Part shown: positions 1,159-63,000 of the stretch, piece after piece
Layout: each line of letters starts with the position of its first letter
Position numbering within the stretch: position 1 is the first letter of the stretch
The notes under the pieces: model-generated
What the model saw: only the letters and a program-made list of their open reading frames with translations
Database searches by the model: none
Told to the model about the DNA's origin: nothing
From: a virus
Taxonomy: Duplodnaviria > Heunggongvirae > Uroviricota > Caudoviricetes
Strand: one strand, 5' to 3'
Length of the DNA stretch: 64,000 bases
IMG/VR virus record: IMGVR_UViG_3300029702_000002
Translations under genes and position numbers: made by a program

Positions 1159-1695
1159 GTGAACAACCAAATTCATTGGGACTACCCATTCTCAGAAGAA
1201 TTCGGCAGTGGGATGGTACACAGACAATTCACTGTGGGAAGCACTATTTATGCCGTTGGGTTTGAACAAATATTGACGATGGATGATTTCACACGTAAGG
1301 GAGTTGATATCCTAAATGTACATCCAACATTCCGGTTTCCTCTGAGTGGTGTATGGGGAGTGATTTTTGACGAAATTGACCCTGTAGAAATGGATTTCAA
1401 AGGATTTCGGCATATCCAACATCAAGGCTTGGCAGGTGGTCAAGTGCTTTTGAATGTTGCAAGTATAATCTTTGACCATTATACTGTTTGTAACGCAGGA
1501 GCTTATGTCTTCTCCGCCGCAGTCGACCATCAGCATTTACGCAGAACTGACTTGGTAGACATTTACTGTAAGATACTGGGTCTAAATGGAAAACGTAAAA
1601 GTAGATTGTTCGCCAATGGTTTTCCTGGATGGGAGGCATACTGTGATGTACCAACAGGAGGAAGAGGCTATGTCGTCACGACTGAAAGTTATTAA
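1159..1695 (+). CDS. Hypothetical protein (178 aa, GTG start)
   Basis: ORF with stop overlapping the next gene start; no recognisable motif. Confidence 0.45.
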   Translation: MNNQIHWDYPFSEEFGSGMVHRQFTVGSTIYAVGFEQILTMDDFTRKGVDILNVHPTFRFPLSGVWGVIFDEIDPVEMDFKGFRHIQHQGLAGGQVLLNVASIIFDHYTVCNAGAYVFSAAVDHQHLRRTDLVDIYCKILGLNGKRKSRLFANGFPGWEAYCDVPTGGRGYVVTTESY

Positions 1696-6632: not shown

Positions 6633-7111
6633 TGTTGTTTTGCCTCCATATGTTGATCGATTTGCTCATGTGTTTTTTTTGTTGTTTCTTCAAGCAACGC
6701 CGCATACACGTCAGTGATCGCTGTTTGTGATGTGGCGCTCTTCTTAACCATGCTATTAATCGTTACACTGTCACGTTTTCGTTTTATAGTTCTGGCTTGT
6801 TTATTCCGTTCTTCAACCTCCTTAATGAGCGCGGTCATATCTTCGAAATACAGAGATTCTCCTTTACGAATCTCTTCAACCATCATTTTTAACGCCTTGC
6901 ATTTGCCTGCTTTGATAGCGGTTGCGCACGACTGGAATGAAGTTCGAGGAAGACGGTTTTCTTTGAAGGCAAGAATGGTGTGCTGGCAAACGGAGTAGCT
7001 GCAATATGCCGACTCACCGTTTATCTTTACTTCCTCACAACGAAGTGAATAACCATTATTTCCTGAAATAGAGGGGATTTTTGACAAATCAGCTTTCACA
7101 ACTACCGCCAT
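6629..7111 (-). CDS. Hypothetical protein (160 aa, Cys-rich N-terminus)
   Basis: ORF overlapping ligase start by 4 nt. Confidence 0.5.
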   Translation of the reverse strand: MAVVVKADLSKIPSISGNNGYSLRCEEVKINGESAYCSYSVCQHTILAFKENRLPRTSFQSCATAIKAGKCKALKMMVEEIRKGESLYFEDMTALIKEVEERNKQARTIKRKRDSVTINSMVKKSATSQTAITDVYAALLEETTKKTHEQIDQHMEAKQQ

Positions 7112-12455: not shown

Positions 12456-12498
12456 GTGCTTTCCTTTGTTTTTTAAACAAATTGTTTTCTAGTATTAG

Positions 12499-14341: not shown

Positions 14342-14701
14342 TTAACCTTTCTTCATCAACTCTCGTTTGATTTCATCGGTACGCATCGTGACATCGGCAG
14401 CGGTGATCGCCTCATTCAATTTCACGATGTCCTCGATTTCCTGCGGTGACTTCTCTGCCAGATGGAAAATGGCTGCTCGAATCACGTCAGAACGAGTGAA
14501 CTTCTCGAAGCGAGGGATGAACTTCATCATCTCCAGCAGTTCGAAGTATTCGTCCTCCAGTGACATTGTGCGGCTTTTAATTTTCTCTTTGCCACGAGTC
14601 GGGCGTCCCTGTGGTCTGACTGGTTGGCGCAAAGGAGTTGTGTTCTTAGCCGGTGCATCAGGCTCTTTGCGCTTTGCTAGGTCACCCATTTTCATGGACA
14701 T
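14342..14701 (-). CDS. ParG-like small partition protein (basic N-terminal tail, putative ribbon-helix-helix C-terminus)
   Basis: 119-aa ORF translationally coupled (ATGA) to ParA-like gene. Confidence 0.5.
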   Translation of the reverse strand: MSMKMGDLAKRKEPDAPAKNTTPLRQPVRPQGRPTRGKEKIKSRTMSLEDEYFELLEMMKFIPRFEKFTRSDVIRAAIFHLAEKSPQEIEDIVKLNEAITAADVTMRTDEIKRELMKKG

Positions 14702-15369
14702 TATTCTTCTTCCTCCAGACTCAACAGATAATCTACAAATTCTTCAAACTCGGCTTCCGCCTTTTTGTCGCGCTCGCTACCGGTCATTTCAAAGATAGAA
14801 CGACCAGACTCTTCCGCATCATCATAGACGTTGCGGTTATATAGATTGACTGGCGCAGACTCGATTCCAAACGTCTCAACAATCTCTTTAGCCGCCAGAA
14901 TGCGAGACACTTGTGATGGCAAAGCCGGGCACTGGTTCATGACCGCGCGGACCTTCACTTTATCGTTTACATTGCGAACATTGTCGATAATAGGATCGAT
15001 GTCACGTAAAGATTTCAAATCACGACGCTTAGGACGCAGCGGGATAATGATAACGTCAGCCATCAGCATCGCTTGTCGCTGAATTTCGGAGTCGAAGCCA
15101 CCAGCATCTACCACTACAAACTCAGCTCTACCCTGAAGCGATTTTAGGTGCTTAATGATGTCATCCTGAACGTATGCAAAAGGAATCAGCTCCAGGTCTT
15201 CGTTCTGTCGACGGTCTTCACACCAGCTCGTTGTCGTGCGCTGAATATCTATATCGGTAATATAAACCTTCTTCTTCTTTTTGACTTTCAGGCAAACGGC
15301 AATTTGCTGGGCAACGGTGGATTTGCCAGGCCCGCCCTTTGTGCCGCCAACCACAAAGATCTTGGTCAT
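14701..15369 (-). CDS. ParA/MinD-family partition ATPase
   Basis: Deviant Walker A KIFVVGGTKGGPGKST at N-terminus, 222 aa. Confidence 0.85.
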   Translation of the reverse strand: MTKIFVVGGTKGGPGKSTVAQQIAVCLKVKKKKKVYITDIDIQRTTTSWCEDRRQNEDLELIPFAYVQDDIIKHLKSLQGRAEFVVVDAGGFDSEIQRQAMLMADVIIIPLRPKRRDLKSLRDIDPIIDNVRNVNDKVKVRAVMNQCPALPSQVSRILAAKEIVETFGIESAPVNLYNRNVYDDAEESGRSIFEMTGSERDKKAEAEFEEFVDYLLSLEEEE

Positions 15370-15687
15370 TGGAGAGTTCCCTTTGCGTATATAATTATCG
15401 TCTGAAACAACTTGTTTTCTTATATGTGATATAGCCTAAATGCCTACGGCTGCGGTGTAAAGGTTAAATGGTAGGTTGTGATTAACAATTGGCAAACATA
15501 GCTTGTATTTGTCTGTTGAAAAAAGTAACAATGACCTCTATATTACAAGTACGGTGATATGCCGTACACAATTTGATAATGCACACGTAATGGGCTATAG
15601 CCTTTTAAAGTAATTTTTGAGTCGAAAACTCAGTTTGAACAGAGGAGATTGATGGCCTTCCTACATCACGGCCATCAGGAGGAATAC

Positions 15688-44534: not shown

Positions 44535-44651
44535 AGATCCCTCTAAAACACACAGAGCGCGTCCATGCGCTCTAAAACAACTTGTTTACTGCATTTTCTA
44601 ACCAACTTGTTTTCTGGGTTGTTTAATTAGGTCTGGGCATGTCTTATTAAG

Positions 44652-44730: not shown

Positions 44731-44997
44731 TTACATCACCAGTAACTTCGCTTTGGCTCGACCTAAAGTGGTTAACCCAAGAGTTCGGCGGTGATAGCGA
44801 TTGTCACTGCGTTGGCGCGTATGCCCTTTCTCCACAAGCCCCTTTTTTATCAGAGCGCGAATTGAGAACTGGATACTTTGCTTGGTTGTCTTGTACGGCA
44901 AAACTTCAAGCAATTCGTCCAGATCAAGTAGATGACCTCGCTCATAACCGAGATTGAGCGTTTTGATGATGTCCTTTTGTTTATCGGTTAACGTCAT
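44731..44997 (-). CDS. Small putative DNA-binding protein (88 aa)
   Basis: AAGGA site; basic C-terminus; last gene of ParB/ATPase/GNAT operon. Confidence 0.45.
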   Translation of the reverse strand: MTLTDKQKDIIKTLNLGYERGHLLDLDELLEVLPYKTTKQSIQFSIRALIKKGLVEKGHTRQRSDNRYHRRTLGLTTLGRAKAKLLVM

Positions 44998-47922: not shown

Positions 47923-47986
47923 TAAGTAATCACTTACTTATTATAATAGCCAAATAACATACAAAAGGCACTAAGGAAAGAGGTTT

Positions 47987-49546: not shown

Positions 49547-49649
49547 TTATGAGCGAAAAGAAAACAACTTATTGTCAGGTAGCATTGTCTGATAAGGCCA
49601 ATGACAAACTTGGAAAGTTTCAAGTGAAACTAAAAGAAAAAATATCAAA

Positions 49650-49826
49650 ATGTCTAAGGCTGAAGTCATAAATACCATTCTGGAACAATTGACAATGGCC
49701 GACTTTGACAAGGTTATATCTTCTGTCGGGGCTTCCGCTAAGACTCGTGAGAAAATCATGCGTATCTATGAGAACTCTAATATGACAAAGGAAGATCTCG
49801 AAACGCTATTAAGCAGATTAAAATAA
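49650..49826 (+). CDS. Small hypothetical protein (58 aa)
   Basis: Short ORF below track cut-off between helicase and lipoprotein gene. Confidence 0.3.
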   Translation: MSKAEVINTILEQLTMADFDKVISSVGASAKTREKIMRIYENSNMTKEDLETLLSRLK

Positions 49827-50321: not shown

Positions 50322-50846
50322 ATGACAACCAAAGATATTACCTACGGTATCCAAGCTGAACTCTGGCCGCGAGATTACACTAACGTTGAAAAACTACTGA
50401 TGTTCTGGCGCAGAGAACAAATTCCTGTAAGGGTCACTCTCGAAGATGGCCAGGCGTTTTGCATGTACGTTTATGGCCTCATGCCATCTCGTAACAAAGT
50501 TGACCTTTGCCCAGCCCCTTTTGACAAAGAAAATCGTATAAGGCTCCCACTTGAACGCATTAGTACAATTGAATCAGGTGTGGTTGACAGTATCGCTCAC
50601 GATTTCAAAGGTCGACTAACAGTTCACCCTGATTATGTCGATAATCGGCCATCACGCCGCGATTTTTTTGCAATTTGCAACCAAGCCTACAAAGCAAACA
50701 AATCTATAAGGGTGTACATGGCGGATGGCCGTGAAATTGAGGGGGTGTCAGCAGGCGCAGATGCTTGTCAGGTTACACTACGTGTCGAGAACGTTAGAAA
50801 AATAGTTGTTTTGTTCGATTGGGTTGAACGAATTTTGCCTTTTTGA
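50322..50846 (+). CDS. Hypothetical cytoplasmic protein (174 aa)
   Basis: ATG 5 nt after lipoprotein stop. Confidence 0.5.
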   Translation: MTTKDITYGIQAELWPRDYTNVEKLLMFWRREQIPVRVTLEDGQAFCMYVYGLMPSRNKVDLCPAPFDKENRIRLPLERISTIESGVVDSIAHDFKGRLTVHPDYVDNRPSRRDFFAICNQAYKANKSIRVYMADGREIEGVSAGADACQVTLRVENVRKIVVLFDWVERILPF

Positions 50847-53155: not shown

Positions 53156-53211
53156 TTCCCTGCGGCAGCTGGTGGCTATAGAGAAAGGGCCGTTTCTGGC
53201 CCTCTTCTCAG

Positions 53212-53694
53212 TTACACGCCATCAAGGATGTGGATGCGGTTGCTTGCGTATACATTCAGCATAAAGTTAGCGCAAAACAGTTTCCATGTATCAACGCCAG
53301 CGGTATACGTAATGTTTTTGCATTTAATTGCATTGTTGGCGATCCGCATCCCCTGCGATACTGCTTCATCGTCGGAAAATTTGAACGACGATTGAGTTTT
53401 AATCCAGACAGAAATCTGCGTAGCGAACTCAATCAGCTTGGACTGGCAGAATCGCCCGGAGCGCACCGGAAAGACGAACGTTCCGAATCCAGAATTTACC
53501 ACATACGCTTTTTCAAATACCCGCGAGTAACGACGATTGCCAATGATGTCGCGTGCAATAATGCATTTTTCTTGTGCTGACAGTTCTACCGTCTCATTGT
53601 CGCGCCATGCACCAAGTACTCGTTTTTCAATGTCAGAGAACGTTACAGCGATATTGCCATGTGCGGGTGCGTTTACAGTAGCGATAAAATTCAT
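53212..53694 (-). CDS. Hypothetical protein (160 aa), monocistronic cassette
   Basis: Shared upstream promoter/operator element. Confidence 0.55.
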   Translation of the reverse strand: MNFIATVNAPAHGNIAVTFSDIEKRVLGAWRDNETVELSAQEKCIIARDIIGNRRYSRVFEKAYVVNSGFGTFVFPVRSGRFCQSKLIEFATQISVWIKTQSSFKFSDDEAVSQGMRIANNAIKCKNITYTAGVDTWKLFCANFMLNVYASNRIHILDGV

Positions 53695-53898
53695 GATTAA
53701 TTCCTTATCGTAAATAACAAATTGTTTTCTTGTTGGTGTTAATTATCGTTGTACGAATAAGGCGTCAAAGTGGAAAGTTACGGTAGCCGGACGGGAACAG
53801 GTGGGTTTGTCGGTTGCCTGGAGGTAAGAGGTTGGTGTTTTTAGCCTGCGGGAAACAAGATAGTCATTTAAGGCCACCAATGCTGGTGGCCTTAGCCT

Positions 53899-54180
53899 TT
53901 AGTGGAGCAGACCGATGTCGATGGTATCCCCTGAATCATCCACACGGATCATCAGCATGGCAAAGGCGTTTAGTGGATAGCTTGCGTGCCATTCAGGGAA
54001 GCGGTCATCTCGCATGAAGTCGACAATGTCGTAAACGCATCCCTCAAAGTGGAAGAATCGCGTGCTTACCTGCTCGTCATAATCCACATGATCCATTTCT
54101 TGCTGTTCTGTTTCCGGCAAGTCCAGCCATGATTCAAGAAATACATTTTGTGCTTTAGGGGTAATGGTGAAATCAGTCAT
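53899..54180 (-). CDS. Small acidic hypothetical protein (93 aa), monocistronic cassette
   Basis: ATG at 54180 with GAGGA site; conserved upstream element and 3' hairpin 53871-53895. Confidence 0.5.
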   Translation of the reverse strand: MTDFTITPKAQNVFLESWLDLPETEQQEMDHVDYDEQVSTRFFHFEGCVYDIVDFMRDDRFPEWHASYPLNAFAMLMIRVDDSGDTIDIGLLH

Positions 54181-54369
54181 GAGCATATCCTCACTGCGTA
54201 AACATGTTGTTTTCTTGTTGGTGTAATTATCGCAGTGTAGATAAGGCATAAAAGAAGTTAATACAGGCTGAATACACAAGAAAGGTTATGGAAGTTGATA
54301 GCCAGGTTTCAAACTAACCTTCGGTTATTAAAAGTCATTTAAGACCACCAATGCTGGTGGCCTTAATAA

Positions 54370-54513
54370 TTATCGCCCGATTACGCTAAGGATCTTTTCC
54401 TCAACTGATTTGTTGTTGCGACTAAACTGCCTTGCGTATCTGATGACAGAAGAGGCGTTTTGCTTTCTGACCATCTCGGCTCTTTCCTTCAGGCGTTTCT
54501 TGAAATCGCCCAT
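54370..54513 (-). CDS. Small basic protein (47 aa), coupled to upstream gene
   Basis: Short ORF starting 2 nt after stop of 54516-54890 and ending 5 nt before conserved hairpin. Confidence 0.3.
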   Translation of the reverse strand: MGDFKKRLKERAEMVRKQNASSVIRYARQFSRNNKSVEEKILSVIGR

Positions 54514-54515
54514 AT

Positions 54516-54890
54516 TTACCACCAGGCGCAGAAGGTCAGTCTGTTATTGTGAAAGTCGTGGTTCTTAATCAGATCTTCCACAAGCTCTTTCAACTGCCCC
54601 ACATCATGCCAGTAACCTTCATCGTACTCCTGACTGCCGAAGAAAAAACCTTCCCGGGTAGGCAAGTACTCTTCGCAATTACTTTCGTTTATGTGCATCA
54701 AATGAGCCTTCAGAAAACAAATGTCATTCATCGTTAATTCTAAAAGCTCACAATTTTCGACTTCACCTACGTTGCGCTCCATCCACCCAACGAGCGCATT
54801 GAACTTACGGAAGTAAGCAACCTGCTTTCTGGATGCCTCGTTATTCAGATCGTTTTTAGGCTGCGTCTCGATATAGATATCAAGTCCCAT
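54516..54890 (-). CDS. Hypothetical protein (124 aa), monocistronic cassette
   Basis: ATG 54890 with AAGGAAACC site; conserved upstream element. Confidence 0.5.
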   Translation of the reverse strand: MGLDIYIETQPKNDLNNEASRKQVAYFRKFNALVGWMERNVGEVENCELLELTMNDICFLKAHLMHINESNCEEYLPTREGFFFGSQEYDEGYWHDVGQLKELVEDLIKNHDFHNNRLTFCAWW

Positions 54891-55007
54891 GATGGTTTCC
54901 TTATTAAGTTGCTTCAGTGAAATCATTTTCACAAATCAGATAAGGCAGAAAACAAATTGTTATCGGGCATAATAAAATGGCGCGGTTTACGCGCCATTTA
55001 AAGAGGA

Positions 55008-55403
55008 TTAAGCGAATACGCTTTCAGGGATTAAGGTGTCGGCAGGAATGCCAGAGGTAATGCGCAGGCCGTACTGACCAATCCAGGTAGTGTTGGTATT
55101 CAGGCTGGAGGCGAATACGGTGTTAACCATATTCATCATGGTTTCAAACACCTCTTCATTAACCTGGCGGAAGTAGTTCTCGATTTTCAGCAGCAGCGGG
55201 TCAGTTGCATCGAGAATGGACTGGTATTGAGTCGCGTACTCGCCGCCGGAGGCATCACCTTTACGCACGATCGTACTGGCCTGGACTTCGGCACCAGTTT
55301 CGGTGTTGTACGTAACAACGGTGATTTTTGCCACATTCTTACCTTCGGCGGTTTCAGAGGCATAGTAAACATCAACTGTCAGTTTTTCGCGTTTAACGGT
55401 CAT
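55008..55403 (-). CDS. Hypothetical protein (131 aa)
   Basis: ATG 55403 with GGAGAG site. Confidence 0.5.
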   Translation of the reverse strand: MTVKREKLTVDVYYASETAEGKNVAKITVVTYNTETGAEVQASTIVRKGDASGGEYATQYQSILDATDPLLLKIENYFRQVNEEVFETMMNMVNTVFASSLNTNTTWIGQYGLRITSGIPADTLIPESVFA

Positions 55404-55529
55404 TTCACTCTCCGTAGTGTTTTGGTTATTTTTATATTCTATGATCGTAAGTATGTACTTACAATACAAAAAAGCCCCGTAAGGATGGCGGGGCTGTCGT
55501 ACGGTCGACTAATTACCACTTGCACATTA

Positions 55530-55841
55530 TCAGGCTATTGCCATCACTGATGCTCTCTGAATCTCTTGCTGGGCCACGCGGTTAACTTCCATCAAAGCCA
55601 GTTCGAGCTGATGTTCCGGCCACATTCTTTGAAATGCCACCCAGCCTTTTCCACGCTGGCGACGAACATTCATTACATAACGAGTAAAGGTGTTTTTATC
55701 GAAAGACACCGCTGTTTCACGGAACAGACGAATAGAGGTTCCATTGGCAACGATGTCCAGCAAAGTTAATTGAGCAACCAGCGCAGGCTTCTCTTTTCTC
55801 TTCTGGTCTTTGTCCAGACCAAGAACCAATGATTTTTTCAT
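55530..55841 (-). CDS. Hypothetical basic protein (103 aa)
   Basis: ATG 55841 with GGAG site; conserved upstream element at 55853-55867. Confidence 0.5.
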   Translation of the reverse strand: MKKSLVLGLDKDQKRKEKPALVAQLTLLDIVANGTSIRLFRETAVSFDKNTFTRYVMNVRRQRGKGWVAFQRMWPEHQLELALMEVNRVAQQEIQRASVMAIA

Positions 55842-55994
55842 CACAACTCCGTAAACAACTTGTTTTCTCAATGGCGTAAATAATACCAGTAAGAAAACGG
55901 CTACAAAGCATATTGATCAGGTGCATGAGCTATATGCAGGTTCTTCCCTGCGGCTATAGAGAAATTAAGCCAGCAATGCTGGCTTTGGTTGGGG

Positions 55995-56324
55995 TTACTC
56001 GAATACTTCAAGAAACTCCTGAACGTCCCAATGCTGGACGAGGTGAAGATAGACCTTAGAAATCACGTCATTTTCGCTATCGCATGTGAAGTAGTACTTC
56101 TGGCTGCGGTTGTATGTGTCCACACAAAATTCGCTCATATCCATAAAGTCAGCATCTTCACCCAGGTCGCTGATCATCAAAGCAGGTGCGTCATCACGAG
56201 TCATCAGTTCCAGCACCCATCTTGAATTGATCAGAGTGGAAGACCAACCTTCTAACTCATAAAACTGATCAAACTCTTTTTGAGTTAATTTCTTGATTTG
56301 GTTGATGTCGATATTTGTAAACAT
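55995..56324 (-). CDS. Small acidic hypothetical protein (109 aa)
   Basis: ATG 56324 with AAGGA site; conserved upstream element; 3' hairpin 55968-55986. Confidence 0.5.
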   Translation of the reverse strand: MFTNIDINQIKKLTQKEFDQFYELEGWSSTLINSRWVLELMTRDDAPALMISDLGEDADFMDMSEFCVDTYNRSQKYYFTCDSENDVISKVYLHLVQHWDVQEFLEVFE

Positions 56325-56679
56325 AAAGCAATCCTTAAACAACATGTTTTCTTGATGGTGTTATTATCGCAATAACGCACAGGCGAAAAAGGATTTTGTT
56401 CCGGTGAATGTGGTTTTGGCAGTGAGTTTTCAGGTTCAGTACCGAGTACACTTTTTACATTATTCTGATTTAGTGGCCGAAAGTGGCTGGTGGCAGAGTA
56501 ATCCTCTCCCCAAAAACCTACTGAAATCGATTGTGACCCGTTGGCTGTCTGGCACAATTACGCTGTAGCTGGGCATTCAGAGGGAATCCAGCGGTAAGCA
56601 AGTCCGCCTACGTGAGCGCCTCTCTTCTTCCCGCACATTACAGGTGGGTAGCCGCAACTCTCCCTCTCGCTATACCGGT

Positions 56680-56830
56680 ACGCCACCGTTCCTGAACCGG
56701 CATCGAGCCTTTTCCCGAAATCCACACAGGCAACTCGACCGTTTCCCTGAAAACCTCCAGCCGTTCCCCGAAGGCAACCCAGCCGTTTCTGTAGCGGGAT
56801 GCAGCCTTTTCCCTGTATGGACCGAAGGCT
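56680..56830. repeat. Iteron-like direct repeats (CCGTTTCCCTGAAAACC family), cluster B, 6 copies
   Basis: Six imperfect 20-23-bp units in tandem, same family as 53070-53155. Confidence 0.55.
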
Positions 56831-56859
56831 GACCGTAGGGGTGTTACGGGGGGATAAAA

Positions 56860-57780
56860 TCAGGAGTTGAATAAATACGAAAAAGGAGGCGACACCCCTC
56901 CTTCCCTCCCCACTTATACATACCTGGCTTCTTCGCTATACATGTTGTGTTTTATCTGTCTCAACCTCTCTATAGGCGTTAATGCTCACTCCTTCCAGAA
57001 TGTTCTATACGGCGACTATTTCTGTTGGTGAATTGGGTGTGTTGTTTTCTCTGTCGGTGTATGTGGTTTCGTTCGTTTTGCGGTGGTTCTTCTATGGGGT
57101 GTTCTCGTCGTTTTGGTGATTGTTCTTCTCCGTGTATGGAGTAATGGCAGGTGGGCGATTCCTTTCGTTGTTGTGTTTGAGTTGTTTGTCTGGAGTGTGT
57201 GAAAGGCTTTTGTAGTTATTCGTGTATTGGGTAATGGCGTTTCCCGTGATTGTTATGTTTCGTGTCTTTTGGGATTGAGAGAATCCTTGCGGTTACAGGC
57301 TTCGTTGGGGTTTCAGCGGTTCAGGTGTTTCTTCGCTGTTTGGGTAATGGCGTGTCGTGGGTATCGCGCGTATGAATGTTTTCGGATTGCCTGTGAAAGT
57401 TAGGTTGGTTGTCCGGTAGCCTGGGGAGAAGAGGTGGGTCTTTTCGGTAGCCTGCCATAAAGAGGTTGGTTGTTTTTGGGAATGGCATGTGTGTTATTTA
57501 GTTGTTTTGTTATGCCTGAAAATAAGTTGTTTATATGGTTGTGTAACGCAACGGGAGCGATTTTGAGCGTGTGTTTTTGTTGGTAGTGTGTTGGGTCGTC
57601 TGTGGTGAAAATTGGACGCTGTGGCGCTGTCTGCTGCGTAGCAGTTACGGGTATAAGAAGTGATGTGTGAAAACGTCAATTTTTTAGACCAAATCGGGTG
57701 AAAGCGTTGACGTTTCGTTGATCTGTTATTTAGTTGTTTTCTTATTTGTATAAACAACCATAACCTATTGATATTTAAGG
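56860..57780. repeat. ORF-free GT-skewed region with degenerate direct repeats of about 115 bp (units begin GGGTAATGGCG)
   Basis: Plus strand almost exclusively G/T-rich for about 900 bp; three GG(G/A)GTAATGGC copies and two CGGTAGCCTG copies. Confidence 0.55.
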
Positions 57781-57876
57781 GTATGATTGCAGGTATGGAA
57801 GGGGAGTAGTGGCGATCAACGGATTCTTATAGAAAAGAATCAAATTGTGACCGCCATTATCAATAAGTTGCAACCG

Positions 57877-58446
57877 TTAGTTGTTCAGATAAACATTTGG
57901 AACACGGACGTAGAAGTTCCTGTCACCGGTAAGTTCCAGAGTAATGTTAATGTCATTACCATTGTCTAGTGTAGCCGTTGCTCTATAGAACTTATCCGTC
58001 ACCTTGTCCTCTATTGTCACCTTCATACATTTTGGTGCAGTCGAACCGTTATTCTCTTTCAGAATAGTTGTCACGAGAGGGCAGGCTGCTTCTTCAAGAG
58101 CAACCTCGTCCTTGTGTGGGATGCCGATGAAGATAATCCAAGCCAGCGACGCAACGATTATGATAAATGGCACTCTGCTGCCTTTTGTAATAGTCGCGCG
58201 CTTCCAGAGATAGACAGGCAGGAGGAATACCCCCCATAGAATTGAAGGTGGTTCACAGCCAGACTCCGATAGAGCCATTCTGTCAGCTACTAACAAACCG
58301 ATGGTAGTTACACCCCCAATTATAATAGCGTAATTGGTATACTCTTCCGGCAATACTCCAAAGAAGAAAGGCATGAACGCTAGAATCCACGCATAAATGT
58401 TATTCAGAGGTTTTGTTTGTTGGTTCTGGGTTTCCATCACATCCAT
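57877..58446 (-). CDS. Integral membrane protein (189 aa)
   Basis: Several hydrophobic segments. Confidence 0.5.
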   Translation of the reverse strand: MDVMETQNQQTKPLNNIYAWILAFMPFFFGVLPEEYTNYAIIIGGVTTIGLLVADRMALSESGCEPPSILWGVFLLPVYLWKRATITKGSRVPFIIIVASLAWIIFIGIPHKDEVALEEAACPLVTTILKENNGSTAPKCMKVTIEDKVTDKFYRATATLDNGNDINITLELTGDRNFYVRVPNVYLNN

Positions 58447-58598
58447 TCCATCACATAAAAATCGCGTTTATATATTATCAATTTTCTCACTTGTATAACC
58501 TAAATACGCATCCGTTTATCAATCCACCTTCCACAAACATCAGCTTTGGCTATGAAAAATAACAATCTCAAAGTGAAACCATTATCATAGGATAACGA

Positions 58599-58784
58599 TT
58601 AGATGAGATGGTCTAATTCATCATCTATCATCGCTTTAACACTTGAGTCATTAACCCCGTATTGATTTATGAGCCGTTTCAGCTCCGGTGAAAACTGAAG
58701 GTAGATATCGTGGGCGTTTTTCACTGTAGGTTCAACGCCACGCATTTCAAGCGCCTTTAGTAGATATGAGTCTTCTTTAAGCAT
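58599..58784 (-). CDS. Small hypothetical protein (61 aa)
   Basis: Short ORF, weak support. Confidence 0.3.
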   Translation of the reverse strand: MLKEDSYLLKALEMRGVEPTVKNAHDIYLQFSPELKRLINQYGVNDSSVKAMIDDELDHLI

Positions 58785-58820
58785 AAATTCTCCGTTATCT
58801 AGTATGAAGCGATTGCCGGA

Positions 58821-59120
58821 TTACCATTGCCAGCACTCAAGCCCTTCAACGACCGGTGCGCCACAATCAAAATGTACAGAGTCAAAGCCTACATCAAGTA
58901 CTTTCTGAATGTTCGCAATCGCGCCCTCGGATATACCATATCGACGCAACTCATCTTTCCAGTCATCGTCCTGTAACCCGGCGTGGACAATGCAACCGTA
59001 CTCAATTTGTGAAACCCAATCCAGCTCATTGCTTGCGATCATGAATCGGCGAGCATCTTCCTCTGATGTATGAGATGAGCTGATCAATGCCACCTGGTAG
59101 GCTTGGGTAATGTTCAACAT
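58821..59120 (-). CDS. Hypothetical protein (99 aa); rightmost prophage gene
   Basis: Preceded by two copies of the shared AAACAA-N-TTGTTT operator element (59133-59148, 59184-59198). Confidence 0.5.
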   Translation of the reverse strand: MLNITQAYQVALISSSHTSEEDARRFMIASNELDWVSQIEYGCIVHAGLQDDDWKDELRRYGISEGAIANIQKVLDVGFDSVHFDCGAPVVEGLECWQW

Positions 59121-59236
59121 TTAAACCACTCCAAAACAAGTTGTTTTCTTATGTGGTTTATTATCTCAATCAACAAAAGGCAGAAAACAAATTGTTTTAG
59201 GGTATGTGTAAATCAGAAGGGATTGTGTCTAAATGA

Positions 59237-59281: not shown

Positions 59282-61315
59282 TTACTTAACCTGGTGGCCT
59301 GGTTTAGCACCAGCATCCGGGCTTAACAGGAAGATATCTTTCCCGCCGGGGCCAGCAGCCATCACCATGCCTTCGGAGATACCGAAGCGCATTTTACGCG
59401 GAGCCAGGTTGGCCACCATAATGGTGTGACGACCAATCAGTGCCTGTGGATCTGGATAAGCGGAACGAATGCCGGAGAAGACATTACGTTTTTCGCCACC
59501 GAGATCCAGCGTCAGGCGAAGCAGTTTGTCAGAACCTTCGACAAACTCCGCGTTTTCAATCAGAGCCACGCGCAGGTCAACTTTGGCGAAGTCGTCAAAG
59601 GTGATGGTTTCCTGAATCGGATCATCTGCCAGTGGGCCAGTTACTGGCGCGGCAGCGGCTTTTACTTCCTCTTTGGATGCTTCCACCAGTGCTTCAACCT
59701 GCTTCATGTCGATGCGGTTATACAGTGCCTTGAACGGATTCACTTTATGGCCCAGCAGCGGTTGCTGGATACCATCCCAGGTCAGTTCTGTATTCAGGAA
59801 TGCTTCTGCACGTTCAGTCAGTTTCGGCAGTACCGGTTTCAGGTACGTCATCAGCACGCGGAACAGGTTAATGCCCATAGAGCAAATCGCCTGCAGATCG
59901 GCATCGCGCCCTTCCTGCTTCGCCACCACCCACGGAGCCTGTTCATCGACATAGCGGTTAGCCAGATCAGCCAGCGCCATGATTTCACGAATCGCTTTAC
60001 CAAATTCGCGGCTTTCCCATGCTTCACCAATCACTTCAGCAGCATCAGTAAAGGTTTTGTACAGTTGCGGGTCAGCCAGTTCGCTTGCCAGCACGCCGTC
60101 AAAACGCTTGTTGATAAAGCCTGCATTACGGGAGGCCAGGTTAACCACTTTGTTCACGATATCGGCATTCACGCGCTGAACGAAATCCTCCAGGTTGAGA
60201 TCGATATCATCAATGCGCGAAGAGAGTTTCGCAGTGTAGTAGTAACGCAGGCTGTCAGCGTCAAAATGATTCAGCCAGGTGCTGGCTTTAATAAAGGTGC
60301 CGCGAGACTTGGACATCTTCGCACCGTTCACCGTCACATAGCCATGAACAAACAGGTTGGTCGGCTTGCGGAAATTGCTGCCTTCCAGCATGGCAGGCCA
60401 GAACAGGCTGTGGAAGTAAACGATATCTTTACCGATGAAGTGGTACAGCTCGGCGGTGGAGTCTTTCTTCCAGTATTCGTCGAAGCTGGTAGTGTCGCCG
60501 CGTTTGTCGCACAGATTCTTGAAGGAACCCATGTAGCCAATCGGCGCGTCCAGCCAGACGTAGAAATATTTGCCCGGTGCGTTCGGAATTTCAAAACCGA
60601 AGTACGGCGCATCGCGGGAGATATCCCACTGTTGCAGGCCAGATTCAAACCACTCCTGCATTTTGTTTGCCACCTGCTCCTGCAACGCACCGCTGCGGGT
60701 CCATGCCTGCAACATTTCGCTGAAAGAAGGCAGATCAAAGAAGAAGTGTTCGGAATCACGCATTACCGGCGTAGCACCAGAAACTACCGATTTCGGCTCG
60801 ATCAGTTCAGTCGGGCTGTAAGTAGCGCCGCAGACTTCACAGTTATCGCCGTATTGATCCGGTGCTTTACATTTCGGGCAGGTGCCTTTCACAAAACGGT
60901 CCGGCAGGAACATGCCTTTTTCCGGATCGTACAGCTGAGAGATGGTGCGGTTTTTAATAAAACCGTTCTCTTTCAGGCGAGTATAGATAAGCTCGGACAA
61001 CTGACGGTTCTCTTCGCTGTGCGTCGAGTGATAGTTGTCATAGCTGATGTTAAAGCCTGCAAAATCAGTCTGGTGTTCCTGACTCATTTCGCCAATCATC
61101 TGTTCCGGTGTGATACCAAGCTGCTGTGCTTTCAGCATGATCGGTGTGCCGTGGGCATCGTCGGCACAGATGAAATTAACCTCGTGGCCGCGCATTCGCT
61201 GGTAACGAACCCAGACATCAGCCTGGATGTGCTCCAGCATATGGCCGAGGTGGATTGAGCCGTTAGCGTACGGCAGCGCGCACGTCACCAGAATTTTCTT
61301 CGCGACTTGGGTCAT
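59282..61315 (-). CDS. metG: Methionine--tRNA ligase
   Basis: Translation from [25 protein letters not shown] (HIGH motif), KMSKS motif, C-terminal ...AKPGHQVK; start placed at internal Met 44 of the 720-aa ORF to give the 677-aa enterobacterial MetG. Confidence 0.95.
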
Positions 61316-61472
61316 AGTAGGCATTACTTCTTTGTAGTGAAAAGGGGCTTGATAGTAACAAAATGGCCTTATGTCTGCCATGTGATAACAGCATTTCTCA
61401 TAAATGATTAAATGTCGTAGCTGGAGTACACTACAAGGCGACAATTGCGCAAATTAAAATAAAGGAGACGGG

Positions 61473-62573
61473 ATGAGCGAGTCCAAATCGCCGGATGCCC
61501 TGAGAGCAATGGTAGCCGGTACGCTGGCTAATTTTCAGCACCCAACCCTGAAACACAACCTGACTACGCTTAAAGCGTTACACCATGTTGCGTTGATGGA
61601 TGACACACTGCATGTCGAACTAATCATGCCTTTCGTGTGGAATAAGCCTTTTGAAGACCTGAAAGAGCAATGTAGTGGTGATCTGCTCCGTATCACTAGC
61701 GCAAAGGCTATTGACTGGAAGCTGTCGTACAACATTGCCACGCTTAAGCGCGTCAAAAACCAACCAGGCATTAATGGCGTGAAGAACATCATTGCGGTCA
61801 GCTCCGGTAAAGGCGGCGTGGGTAAATCCTCCACGGCGGTAAACCTGGCGCTGGCGCTGGCGGCTGAAGGTGCGAAAGTTGGTATTCTGGATGCCGATAT
61901 CTACGGGCCATCAATTCCAACCATGCTGGGCGCGGAAAACCAACGTCCAACCTCACCGGACGGTACTCACATGGCACCTATCATGTCTCATGGCCTGGCA
62001 ACCAATTCAATTGGCTATCTGGTCACCGACGACAATGCAATGGTGTGGCGTGGACCGATGGCCAGCAAGGCGCTGATGCAGATGTTGCAGGAAACACTGT
62101 GGCCTGATCTGGACTATCTCGTTCTCGATATGCCGCCGGGCACTGGTGATATTCAGTTGACGCTGGCGCAGAACATTCCTGTAACTGGTGCGGTTGTGGT
62201 AACTACGCCGCAAGACATCGCGCTGATCGATGCGAAGAAAGGCATTGTGATGTTCGAAAAAGTCGAAGTGCCGGTACTGGGTATCGTCGAAAACATGAGT
62301 GTGCATATTTGCAGTAACTGCGGTCATCACGAGCCAATTTTTGGCACCGGTGGCGCACAGAAACTGGCCGAGAAATACAACACGCAGTTGTTAGGCCAAA
62401 TGCCACTTCATATCTCTCTTCGTGAAGATCTGGATAACGGAACACCAACCGTTATTAGTCGTCCAGATAGCGAATTTACGGCTATTTATCGTGACCTCGC
62501 AGATCGCGTTGCTGCCCAAATGTATTGGCAAGGTGAAGTAATACCTGGCGAAATCGCATTCCGCGCAGTGTGA
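61473..62573 (+). CDS. apbC: Fe-S cluster carrier ATPase ApbC/Mrp
   Basis: AVSSGKGGVGKSSTAVNLALALA Walker A and CxxC motif; near-identical to enterobacterial Mrp by recall; divergent from metG as in E. coli. Confidence 0.95.
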   Translation: MSESKSPDALRAMVAGTLANFQHPTLKHNLTTLKALHHVALMDDTLHVELIMPFVWNKPFEDLKEQCSGDLLRITSAKAIDWKLSYNIATLKRVKNQPGINGVKNIIAVSSGKGGVGKSSTAVNLALALAAEGAKVGILDADIYGPSIPTMLGAENQRPTSPDGTHMAPIMSHGLATNSIGYLVTDDNAMVWRGPMASKALMQMLQETLWPDLDYLVLDMPPGTGDIQLTLAQNIPVTGAVVVTTPQDIALIDAKKGIVMFEKVEVPVLGIVENMSVHICSNCGHHEPIFGTGGAQKLAEKYNTQLLGQMPLHISLREDLDNGTPTVISRPDSEFTAIYRDLADRVAAQMYWQGEVIPGEIAFRAV

Positions 62574-62575
62574 TA

Positions 62576-62600
62576 AAAAGGCGGTGCATTGCACCGCCTA
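62576..62600. terminator. Bidirectional terminator hairpin (AGGCGGTGCATTGCACCGCCT) between apbC and the UmuD'-like gene
   Basis: GC palindrome flanked by A-run and T/A-rich sequence. Confidence 0.55.
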
Positions 62601-62610
62601 ATCAGTTCTC

Positions 62611-63000
62611 CTACATCACGGGACAATCATCAAACTCGCCACTTCTTGCGTCGTTGATAATGTGAGTGATCACACCAAACACGGCATTGCTGCCCGTGCA
62701 TCCATCGTCATCCTTTGGCAATGCTTCCTTCTTACCGGTTCTTAAATCCTCCAGATGCTGACGTGGGTACTTCCGGTATCTTTTTACGCGATATTCCCCA
62801 TCCAGAGCGCATACAAGCAGAGAACCATCAACCGGGGTAAGTGAGGAATCGACCACCAGCAATGCACCCTGTAATATTCCCTCACGATGATGACTATCAG
62901 CTGCCCTCATGAAGTAGGTCGCTGAAGGATGTCTAATTATCTGCTGATCAAGAGAAATACGGCTCTCAGCATAATCCGCCGCAGGAGAAGGGAAGCCCAT
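62611..63000 (-). CDS. UmuD'-like (S24 peptidase-fold, pre-processed form) protein, apparently lacking Ser/Lys dyad
   Basis: 129-aa product starts MGFPSPAADY (UmuD begins ...CGFPSPAADY after its cleavable N-terminus); SGDSM region replaced by AADSHH; no umuC partner downstream. Confidence 0.65.
   Translation of the reverse strand: MGFPSPAADYAESRISLDQQIIRHPSATYFMRAADSHHREGILQGALLVVDSSLTPVDGSLLVCALDGEYRVKRYRKYPRQHLEDLRTGKKEALPKDDDGCTGSNAVFGVITHIINDARSGEFDDCPVM

Follow-up and report, generated by a model that had tools for sequence, protein, structure and literature searches.

A row of small accessory gene cassettes in an SSU5-like phage-plasmid of Escherichia coli and the genome-wide palindromic operator that probably governs it

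What connects a row of small genes that have no recognizable function and yet carry nearly the same sequence in front of them? Such a row lies at positions 53160-59200 of the viral record IMGVR_UViG_3300029702_000002 from IMG/VR, a stretch of 64,000 nucleotides that was analyzed in full and is referred to here as the window. A first-pass annotation, made from the letters of the sequence, had described the row as promoter-gene-terminator units with a shared promoter and operator, each unit being individually regulated. The units were borne out for five genes, with one variant and one exception. The individual regulation was not, as a single operator is common to about 20 promoters genome-wide and these form one regulon. 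The scope of the block is thus wider than the local array, and an entire family of phage-plasmids uses it as one of two promoter codes. Taken together, the data are best read, with moderate confidence, as a hyperplastic accessory array that stands under a genome-wide repressor-operator regulon and whose cassettes are exchangeable.

All seven leftward genes had been placed correctly in coordinates and orientation, and the NCBI annotation of a 98% identical plasmid has the same six open reading frames (ORFs). On the minus strand, the block consists of an extended -10 element (TGnGATAAT or TGgTATTAT), 11-12 nt of CA-rich sequence, the palindrome GAAAACAA-N-TTGTTT, and 10-25 nt to the start codon. 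The palindrome, hereafter the operator, has the consensus AGAAAACAA-N-TTGTTTw and spans 17-19 bp. A near-identical block had been reported before all seven genes; we found it as described at five of them (gene A, 53212-53694; gene B, 53899-54180; gene E, 55530-55841; gene F, 55995-56324; gene I, 58821-59120), in a variant form at gene C (54516-54890), and not at gene D (55008-55403). Three of the copies (genes A, B, and F) are near-identical over about 55-68 bp, and two (genes E and I) are diverged.

The block of gene A (53712-53770, minus strand, as are all those that follow) has a -35-like CGTCAA/GCCTTAT at 53757-53768, GATAAT at 53742-53747, and the operator at 53712-53730, centered at about +14, with a position weight matrix (PWM) score of 21.5. 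In front of gene B (54197-54255), GCCTTAT and TGcGATAAT (-10 at 54226-54231) are followed by an operator at 54197-54215 (PWM 24.1), and the block of gene F (56334-56376) has the same TGcGATAAT (-10 at 56363-56368) with an operator at 56334-56352 (PWM 22.5). The best palindrome of the window (PWM 27.1) belongs to gene E (55850-55912; TGgTATTAT with the -10 at 55880-55885, operator at 55850-55868). Gene I is preceded by a dual-operator promoter (59131-59200), in which TGaGATAAT (-10 at 59160-59165) and GCCTTTT are accompanied by operators at 59131-59149 (about +14) and 59182-59200 (about -38), with PWM scores of 26.0 and 26.5 and centers 51 bp apart. In the variant promoter of gene C (54925-54970), the palindrome lies only 5' of the -35 region: the operator at 54947-54965 (PWM 25.1) is directly 5' of GCCTTAT and centered at about -38, the -10 is that of TGtGAAAAT (54925-54930), and the downstream operator is absent. 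Of the six predicted cassette promoters, five thus combine TGn with GATAAT, TATTAT, or GAAAAT; in the remaining one, GATAAT goes with a TTGACG-like -35.

The element that carries the array could be identified by comparison. The 6-kb array region matched 245 of 5,426 complete E. coli genomes, in every case on plasmids of about 100-115 kb and never on a chromosome, with at least 80% of the query covered in 122 records. Its best phage match is Escherichia phage Cyrano (97.6% identity), which is pLF82, the SSU5-like phage-plasmid of strain LF82 (PMC9928086), and farther matches are Klebsiella phage-plasmids and Salmonella phage SSU5. Because all matches are plasmid-borne and the metG and apbC genes next to the array are part of the plasmid, an integrated prophage beside metG was ruled out, and the framing of the DNA as a prophage in this sense had to be replaced; the sequence marks the window as an E. 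coli phage-plasmid of the SSU5/pHCM2 kind and of siphovirus type. The plasmid-borne metG (methionyl-tRNA synthetase) and apbC are 90-95% identical to the chromosomal genes and lie at 59282-63000 together with a gene for a umuD-like S24 peptidase.

The operator is not confined to the array. Matches to AAACAA-N-TTGTTT with at most one mismatch were counted on both strands of the window, giving 25 strand matches (12 places) against 3.15 +/- 1.94 in 100 shuffles, none of which reached 25. All 11 strong sites are intergenic, 12-75 nt 5' of a start codon and on the gene strand. Besides the cassettes, these sites (all on the minus strand) precede a helicase-primase operon (12472-12490, center 12481), 5' of the DnaB-like helicase and primase genes; an operon encoding ParA (14701-15369) and a ParG-like ribbon-helix-helix (RHH) protein (14342-14701), where the operator at 15402-15420 (center 15411, about -24) lies in the promoter spacer of parA; and the small and large terminase genes, with two operators at 44572-44615 (centers 44581 and 44606). 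A weight matrix derived from the window sites identified about 20 sites (about 18-20) in the whole Cyrano genome, nearly all of them 15-45 nt 5' of the first gene of an operon and on the coding strand. The Cyrano targets are terS, parA, the helicase gene, cobT, CYRAN_58, the gene for the beta subunit of ribonucleotide reductase (RNR-beta), a tciA-like gene, CYRAN_87, CYRAN_93, and the cassette array. SSU5 has 21 sites at syntenic promoters, the Klebsiella element pJN2-26 has 13 in 25 kb, and the operator is also present in diverged IMG/VR contigs of 90-112 kb. In a scan of the whole collection, every multi-match locus that was compared was SSU5-like, so that no second family hinted at a regulator in common. 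The literature searches made returned no report on SSU5-type operators or on the regulatory circuitry of SSU5/pHCM2/pMT1-type phage-plasmids.

To characterize the palindrome itself, 71 distinct sites were compared. Positions -8 to -1 (GAAAACAA) and +1 to +6 (TTGTTT) are nearly invariant, and of 32 departures at symmetry-related positions none is compensated, which argues for the behavior of protein-DNA half-sites rather than of an RNA helix. Relative to the predicted -10 elements, most operators are centered at about +14, that of parA at about -24, and that of gene C, one of the two of gene I, and many in relatives at about -38; at these positions a bound protein would be expected to block RNA polymerase, not to activate it.

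Gene D, the exception within the array, belongs to a second code. Its promoter (55436-55464, minus strand; TTGTAA-17-TAGAAT) lacks the shared operator and is overlapped by a different palindrome, GTAAGTAcaTACTTAC at 55447-55462, which is a member of a second family-wide motif, (GA)TAAGTAAGTA-NN-TACTTACTTA. Allowing at most three mismatches in its 16-nt core, we found 20 overlapping matches in the window against 1.83 expected, at 12 places (2240, 4634, 7987, 13254, 17999, 22222, 29141, 35632, 41125, 42630, 47924, and 55447). All 12 places are intergenic, with a -10-like hexamer 0-8 nt after the motif and a center at about -24. The Cyrano genes found behind the motif are those for capsid, tail, fibre, and holin, together with thyX, sbcD, a ParB-like operon, and the gene D homologue. 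At 47924 it abuts a perfect TATAAT that faces an operon of a helicase and an RHH protein, and this operon is expressed in the lysogen. The layout presumably resembles that of the late promoters of phage P1. As gene D lies behind the second motif, it would be a later-class gene inside an earlier-class array.

Evidence on the direction of control comes from the published transcriptome of LF82, the host of the 97.6% identical Cyrano, in LB medium and in macrophages (S1 Table of PMC9928086). In LB, the median over the 15 first genes that follow the operator is 7.45 normalized counts, compared with 9.8 for the prophage, and the cassette homologues CYRAN_101, 105, 106, 108, 110, and 111 read 5.7-25. 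By these lysogen counts, the cassette genes are silent in the resident plasmid state. In macrophages, where Cyrano transcripts rise overall, the operator genes gained 2.0 log2 units at 1 h and then reached a plateau; from 1 h to 6 h, genes behind the second motif gained 1.29 log2 units versus 0.31 for the operator genes (Mann-Whitney p = 0.009). The idea that the array holds early genes thus stands in part: the LF82 data lend it weak support through a rise before that of the second promoter class, while gene D is of the other class. Both the positions and the counts fit an operator whose putative effect, at predicted transcription starts and through presumed protein binding, is repression.

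These observations can be joined into the following mechanism. Each cassette would be a mono- or bicistronic unit with a sigma-70 extended -10 promoter (TGnGATAAT) and a weak -35 near GCCTTAT. A dimeric repressor encoded by the element would occupy the palindrome at about 20 promoters, those of the accessory cassettes, terminase, helicase-primase, RNR-beta, cobT, and parA, and would keep them off during plasmid replication. When the repressor is absent, as in a fresh infection, or inactivated, as upon induction, the operator promoters would fire as an earlier temporal class, to be followed by the second palindrome class with the structural and lysis genes and gene D. The 3' hairpins would insulate adjacent units, and the conserved promoter block would provide the homology for cassette insertion or replacement. 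The two-motif code appears to split the genome of about 110 kb into an earlier and a later regulon, which offers a handle on the repressor and the induction switch.

Several points weigh against such a repressor-operator regulon. For the cognate binding protein there are candidates, ranked by logic. CYRAN_45, an XRE-type protein encoded beside the integrase just outside the window and the only annotated lysogeny repressor of Cyrano, was excluded: its control region carries GGTAAG-type repeats instead of the operator, and its module is missing from SSU5, which keeps all operators, so it is not the partner. The parA gene carries the operator and is expressed in the lysogen all the same, at 50, as the one operator gene that is clearly on. 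The transcriptome is bulk RNA-seq with low counts, comes from a relative and not from a synchronized induction, and its table leaves strandedness unstated. The -10 boxes were assigned by eye and the starts are predicted; a scan for consensus sigma-70 promoters found the promoter of gene D and missed the shared ones on account of their poor -35 elements. Finally, an 'AG' in the left flank of the operator is conserved on one side only, which could reflect something other than a symmetric dimer.

As the operator is identical in the E. coli, Salmonella, and Klebsiella relatives and in the diverged IMG/VR contigs, co-variation of operator and regulator cannot be used to find the repressor. By the logic of autoregulation, the best candidate, which we put forward tentatively, is the 119-aa ParG-like RHH protein (14342-14701). 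Other candidates are the RHH homologue of CYRAN_117, which is expressed at 114 and whose own promoter has the second palindrome beside a perfect TATAAT; a winged helix-turn-helix protein at 44731-44997; and an FljA-like protein. The RHH-like gene at 49549-49680 (plus strand), located after the gene of a UvsW-type helicase, encodes 92 aa in Cyrano, SSU5, and pLR4; in the window, a 1-nt deletion in an A-run leads to a stop after 43 aa, which reflects either a genuine frameshift or an error in sequencing the homopolymer.

The leading candidate also suggests another purpose for the palindrome. The ParG-like protein may bind it both as a centromere-binding protein and as a global repressor, like KorB of RK2 or omega of pSM19035, so that the eight sites at 53.7-59.2 kb would help to build a partition complex and the regulon would serve plasmid housekeeping instead of answering to a classical lysogeny repressor. 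This account overlaps with the regulon proposed above and differs from it in the binder and the purpose. Among the operons with the operator, only parA-parG codes for a DNA-binding protein and is also expressed in the lysogen (ParA 50, ParG-like protein 89, median 9.8), the operator within its own promoter fits autoregulation, and no other centromere-like repeat array is visible near parA. Where relatives have a ParG-like protein of only 48-52% overall identity, they keep its predicted beta-strand and helix B (KSRTMSxEDE, FTRSDVIRAAI) without change, together with an unchanged operator that again lies 5' of parA and of the helicase gene. However, conservation of protein and site in the same genomes is expected of any core gene, and the RHH assignment relies on a sequence pattern and a weak, sub-threshold NCBIfam match to an RHH family; binding by this protein is a prediction. 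A palindrome of 17-19 bp suits a helix-turn-helix dimer equally, and a partition protein bound for segregation has no obvious route to derepression at induction. We regard the partition account as a possible explanation, though a doubtful one. The still more speculative combination, in which the ParG-like protein represses the early lytic and accessory regulon and segregates the plasmid and the CYRAN_117 homologue (about 49549), again by the logic of autoregulation, controls the second palindrome class, seems rather unlikely; if true, two RHH regulators of the plasmid style, and not a CI-type switch, would run the phage-plasmid.

Further explanations dispense with a DNA-bound repressor. The palindrome could be a positive element, either the site of a phage activator or a specialized promoter determinant for lytic growth: genes that are off in the lysogen and up on induction would be expected if an activator is missing just as if a repressor is present, and the -35 elements are poor. 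However, the commonest position of the palindrome is 3' of a good extended -10 and over the start, a location from which activators are not usually effective; TGn and a near-consensus -10 are present in five of the six cassette promoters, which should need no help; and a range of positions from -38 to +14 is unsuited to a single activation geometry, all of which leaves this explanation improbable. Alternatively, the palindrome might act in the mRNA leader, where an RNA-binding repressor, for instance the FljA-like protein, would attach to it and block translation or stabilize the message. At most promoters it does lie in the predicted 5' untranslated region, 10-35 nt 5' of the start codon, and the element encodes a full-length FljA homologue (50325-50846, plus strand; Pfam Flag1_repress 1e-80 for the Cyrano copy) with weak Hfq/LSM-like similarity. 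FljA has been reported to bind the fliC mRNA leader. Against a role in RNA, the parA site (about -24) and those at about -38, which belong to genes C and I and to many promoters in relatives, precede the predicted starts, the opposite orientation occurs, the potential leader hairpin has only five to six A-U pairs and a 1-3 nt loop, and the departures from the palindrome are uncompensated (0 of 32); we hold such a role to be very improbable. It might also be that no dedicated regulator exists and that the promoter sequence was copied by recombination together with the cassettes, carrying the palindrome along. The cassettes have clearly spread by recombination at the block, and the three copies that are near-identical over about 55-68 bp fit this account, but the core-gene promoters (helicase, terminase, parA, RNR, cobT) share only the palindrome and not its flanks, the flanks fall to about 70% identity among the E. 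coli, Salmonella, and Klebsiella relatives, in which the palindrome is invariant, and the palindrome is found at three positions and in both orientations relative to the -10. Mere copying has hardly any probability in our view. As a separate observation on the FljA homologue, FljA is the repressor of phase-1 flagellin, and the phage-plasmid may interfere with flagellin expression of its host.

The array is further characterized by the exchange of its cassettes. BLAST comparisons of the region with SSU5, Cyrano, and pJN2-26 showed that homology begins and ends at the promoter blocks. The description of the cassettes as accessory is upheld by differing gene content behind promoter blocks that are conserved among the window, Cyrano, SSU5, and pJN2-26. 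The cassette of gene C and the coupled ORF C2 (54370-54890, minus strand) is absent from SSU5 and pJN2-26 and is therefore taken as an insertion. In these two relatives, gene B lies behind a single dual-operator promoter directly after the terminator of gene D. The cassette, bracketed exactly by two copies of TTTTnTGCCTTATC, splits this promoter in the window, so that the left half (terminator, upstream operator, and TGCCTTATC) drives gene C and the right half (TGCCTTATC, GATAAT, and the downstream operator) drives gene B. Gene F is swapped for unrelated genes in SSU5 and pJN2-26; the 40-bp promoter block in front of it is 92.5% identical, and only that block matches SSU5. At 57864-58820, genes G and H are replaced by CYRAN_102 in Cyrano, to which the match is lost at 57864 and restored at 58821, where gene I has its stop codon. 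This segment is of low GC content; gene G encodes 189 aa with a hydrophobic, membrane-like N-terminal part, and gene H encodes 61 aa. A promoter block that serves as the recombination junction explains the swapping of cargo in the SSU5-like family. Phage-plasmids of the SSU5/pHCM2/pMT1 type, which occur commonly in E. coli, Salmonella, Klebsiella, and Yersinia, move resistance genes.

The array combines two known kinds of system, a dispersed-operator immunity regulon and regulatory cassettes like those of T4-type phages. The latter, known as PeSL (promoter-early stem-loop) cassettes, carry small non-essential ORFans in hyperplastic regions (PMC2839356, PMC4122927). As in these cassettes, each ORF here lies between a conserved sigma-70-like promoter, strong as judged by its sequence, and a stem-loop terminator, and the junctions of insertions, deletions, and replacements among close relatives fall in the regulatory motif. 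In contrast to them, there is no compact promoter-hairpin composite, since 80-120 bp separate a hairpin from the next promoter; the element is a temperate siphovirus phage-plasmid and not a T4-type myovirus; and the promoter bears a palindromic operator that is common to core operons genome-wide.

Dispersed-operator immunity regulons include the C1 operators of P1, the conserved inverted repeats of phiC31, and the 'stoperators' of mycobacteriophage L5. In all of them, as proposed here, one short operator, repeated at many points of the genome at or shortly 3' of early promoters, silences lytic and accessory genes in the prophage, and P1 is likewise a plasmid prophage with a dnaB-like helicase operon under its operator. 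The sites of P1 and L5 are asymmetric, whereas the operator described here is a symmetric palindrome of 17-19 bp and of unrelated sequence; unlike in the three phages, the only annotated CI-like repressor of Cyrano is not the partner of the operator. The KorB and KorA proteins of RK2 and the RHH protein omega of pSM19035 act at palindromes of similar length that are found at many plasmid promoters, including that of the partition operon, and that overlap the core promoter or sit just 5' of the -35. The targets here differ in including phage lytic functions, and the ParG-like protein is a candidate binder only. The CUP/ArdK regulon in the leading region of pKM101 and R388 (IncN/IncW) likewise comprises small establishment and anti-restriction genes that have the same promoter-operator repeat upstream and are co-repressed; it shares no sequence or protein homology with the array, which has no conjugation context and no ardA, ardB, or ssb-type genes. 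Integrons, too, have tandem small cassettes with an imperfect palindrome after each, whereas the hairpins here are simple G+C-rich perfect stems. An integron array was rejected, given a promoter of its own for each cassette, no integrase in or beside the array and no attI beside it, and junctions in the promoter rather than in the hairpin.

The products of the array had been described as small, several of them strongly acidic, and without recognizable motifs, and further searches agreed with this. Five products (B, C, D, F, and I) are acidic, with isoelectric points (pI) of 4.1-4.75, and A, C2, and E are basic. Gene A (minus strand, like all genes of the array) encodes 160 aa (pI 9.2, PHROG 1641), for which AlphaFold2 (AF2) gave a confident model without a known fold neighbor. 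Gene B encodes 93 aa (pI 4.1, PHROG 1845); its alignment is shallow and its AF2 model poor, with a predicted local distance difference test score (pLDDT) of 65.7, and fold searches returned no meaningful match for B and no known neighbor for either protein. Homologues of A and B were found only in SSU5-like elements of Enterobacteriaceae, including Y. pestis. Gene C encodes 124 aa (pI 4.75), and the coupled ORF of 47 aa reported behind it is present as C2 (54370-54513, pI 11), joined to gene C by a TAAatATG overlap. The C2 homologue CYRAN_109 reads 58 in the lysogen, tenfold more than the 5.7 of its upstream partner C, which suggests a promoter of its own or an antisense or small RNA at 54370-54513. 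Gene D encodes 131 aa (pI 4.6, PHROG 2473) behind a promoter of the second, late-type class; gene E, 103 aa (pI 10.5, PHROG 5125); and gene F, 109 aa (pI 4.2, PHROG 7645). The last cassette (58599-59120) carries gene I (99 aa) and, close behind with no terminator between, gene H (58599-58784). All nine products fall in PHROGs labelled as of unknown function. In the searches of Pfam, NCBIfam, PHROGs, and PDB, which placed none of them in a well-characterized family, the only Pfam match above threshold was DUF5983 (PF19419, 7.5e-13), the C-terminal domain of gene I; NCBIfam, PADLOC, and PDB sequence searches returned nothing significant.

The position of the cassettes invites a guess at their role. 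The operator predicts which orphan genes are expressed first on entry, and these are natural candidates for host-takeover and anti-defence screens. No anti-defence homologue was found among the products in Pfam, NCBIfam, PHROGs, or PDB, which are general libraries and not a dedicated set of anti-defence hidden Markov models. The matches of protein D to CARF/Csm6-type models (E 0.02-0.04, far under the cut-off) and of protein H to T7 gp5.9 (E 0.005 over 17 residues) were disregarded. The acidity of five products is compatible with mimics of protein or DNA and proves nothing; an anti-defence role is a reasonable guess from location, size, timing, and turnover, not a finding.

At the 3' ends of the units, the three hairpins noted earlier are all real, two of them being near-identical and the third related. 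Hairpin 1 (53862/53868-53894, minus strand) has the form GGCCACCA-loop-TGGTGGCC and lies 3' of gene B, and hairpin 2 (54333/54339-54365/54366, minus strand) lies 3' of C2; as 33-nt sequences (53862-53894 and 54333-54365), the two are 97% identical. Hairpin 3, 3' of gene F (55967-55985, minus strand), is AAGCCAGCA-TT-GCTGGCTT followed by AATTTCTCT. RNA folding gave -19.4, -17.4, and -12.4 kcal/mol for hairpins 1, 2, and 3, with z-scores against shuffles of -3.2, -5.0, and -3.8; their T-tracts are weak, and a terminator scan accepted two of the three. The remaining units end in canonical intrinsic terminators on the minus strand: GGGCC-N6-GGCCC followed by TTTCTCT after gene A (53180-53209; -19.6 kcal/mol, z -3.3), with a Chi site just beyond at 53168-53175; an intrinsic terminator after gene D (54975-54999; -15.2 kcal/mol, z -5.7); and another after gene E (55473-55495), AGCCCCG-N9-CGGGGCT followed by a T run. 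The hairpins and terminators sit 80-120 bp from the next -10, and only three of them are interrelated. Elsewhere in the window, the terminase leader (44535-44575, minus strand), which follows the two operators, contains the hairpin GAGCGC-N6-GCGCTC at 44546-44563 followed by TGTGTGTTTT (z only -1.9), which could be an attenuator or a terminator that needs antitermination.

Chi (GCTGGTGG) is about 12-fold enriched in the window, with 16 sites against 1.31 expected, and the totals are 25 in Cyrano and 31 in SSU5. Its strand switches along the window, with 9 of 10 sites on the minus strand at 5.6-42 kb and 5 of 6 on the plus strand at 49-56.5 kb. Besides the site beyond gene A, the array region has Chi at 53882-53889 and 54353-54360 (both plus strand), located at the loop-stem junction of the two near-identical hairpins, and at 56486-56493. 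In Cyrano the loop of one hairpin is flipped, which puts Chi on the opposite strand, and SSU5 also keeps a Chi-bearing hairpin.

Between genes F and G, a gene-less stretch of 1.3 kb (56400-57750) is about 68-71% conserved in SSU5 and pJN2-26. Its strand asymmetry is extreme, especially at 57000-57700, with a GC skew of +0.43 to +0.49 and an AT skew down to -0.58, and it contains internal GGTAATGGC-type repeats, a weak operator (57518-57535), and, on the minus strand, a hairpin that resembles a terminator (56880-56906). It has no Rfam match, and it might encode a C/A-rich non-coding RNA of about 650 nt or be an origin or priming region. Among known RNA families, only two tRNAs were found elsewhere in the window and nothing in the array region.

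No LexA box was found within the array region, and a LexA-box-like CTGTATAAGTAAACAG lies at 937-956, close to the left end of the window. In Cyrano, one LexA box precedes the integrase gene beside the XRE repressor and a second precedes the umuD-like gene. Near the same end, the ORF at 1159-1695 (plus strand), which is absent from SSU5, is the counterpart of CYRAN_43 by position, not by alignment; CYRAN_43 is by far the most expressed Cyrano gene in the lysogen, at 7,084 against the median of 9.8.

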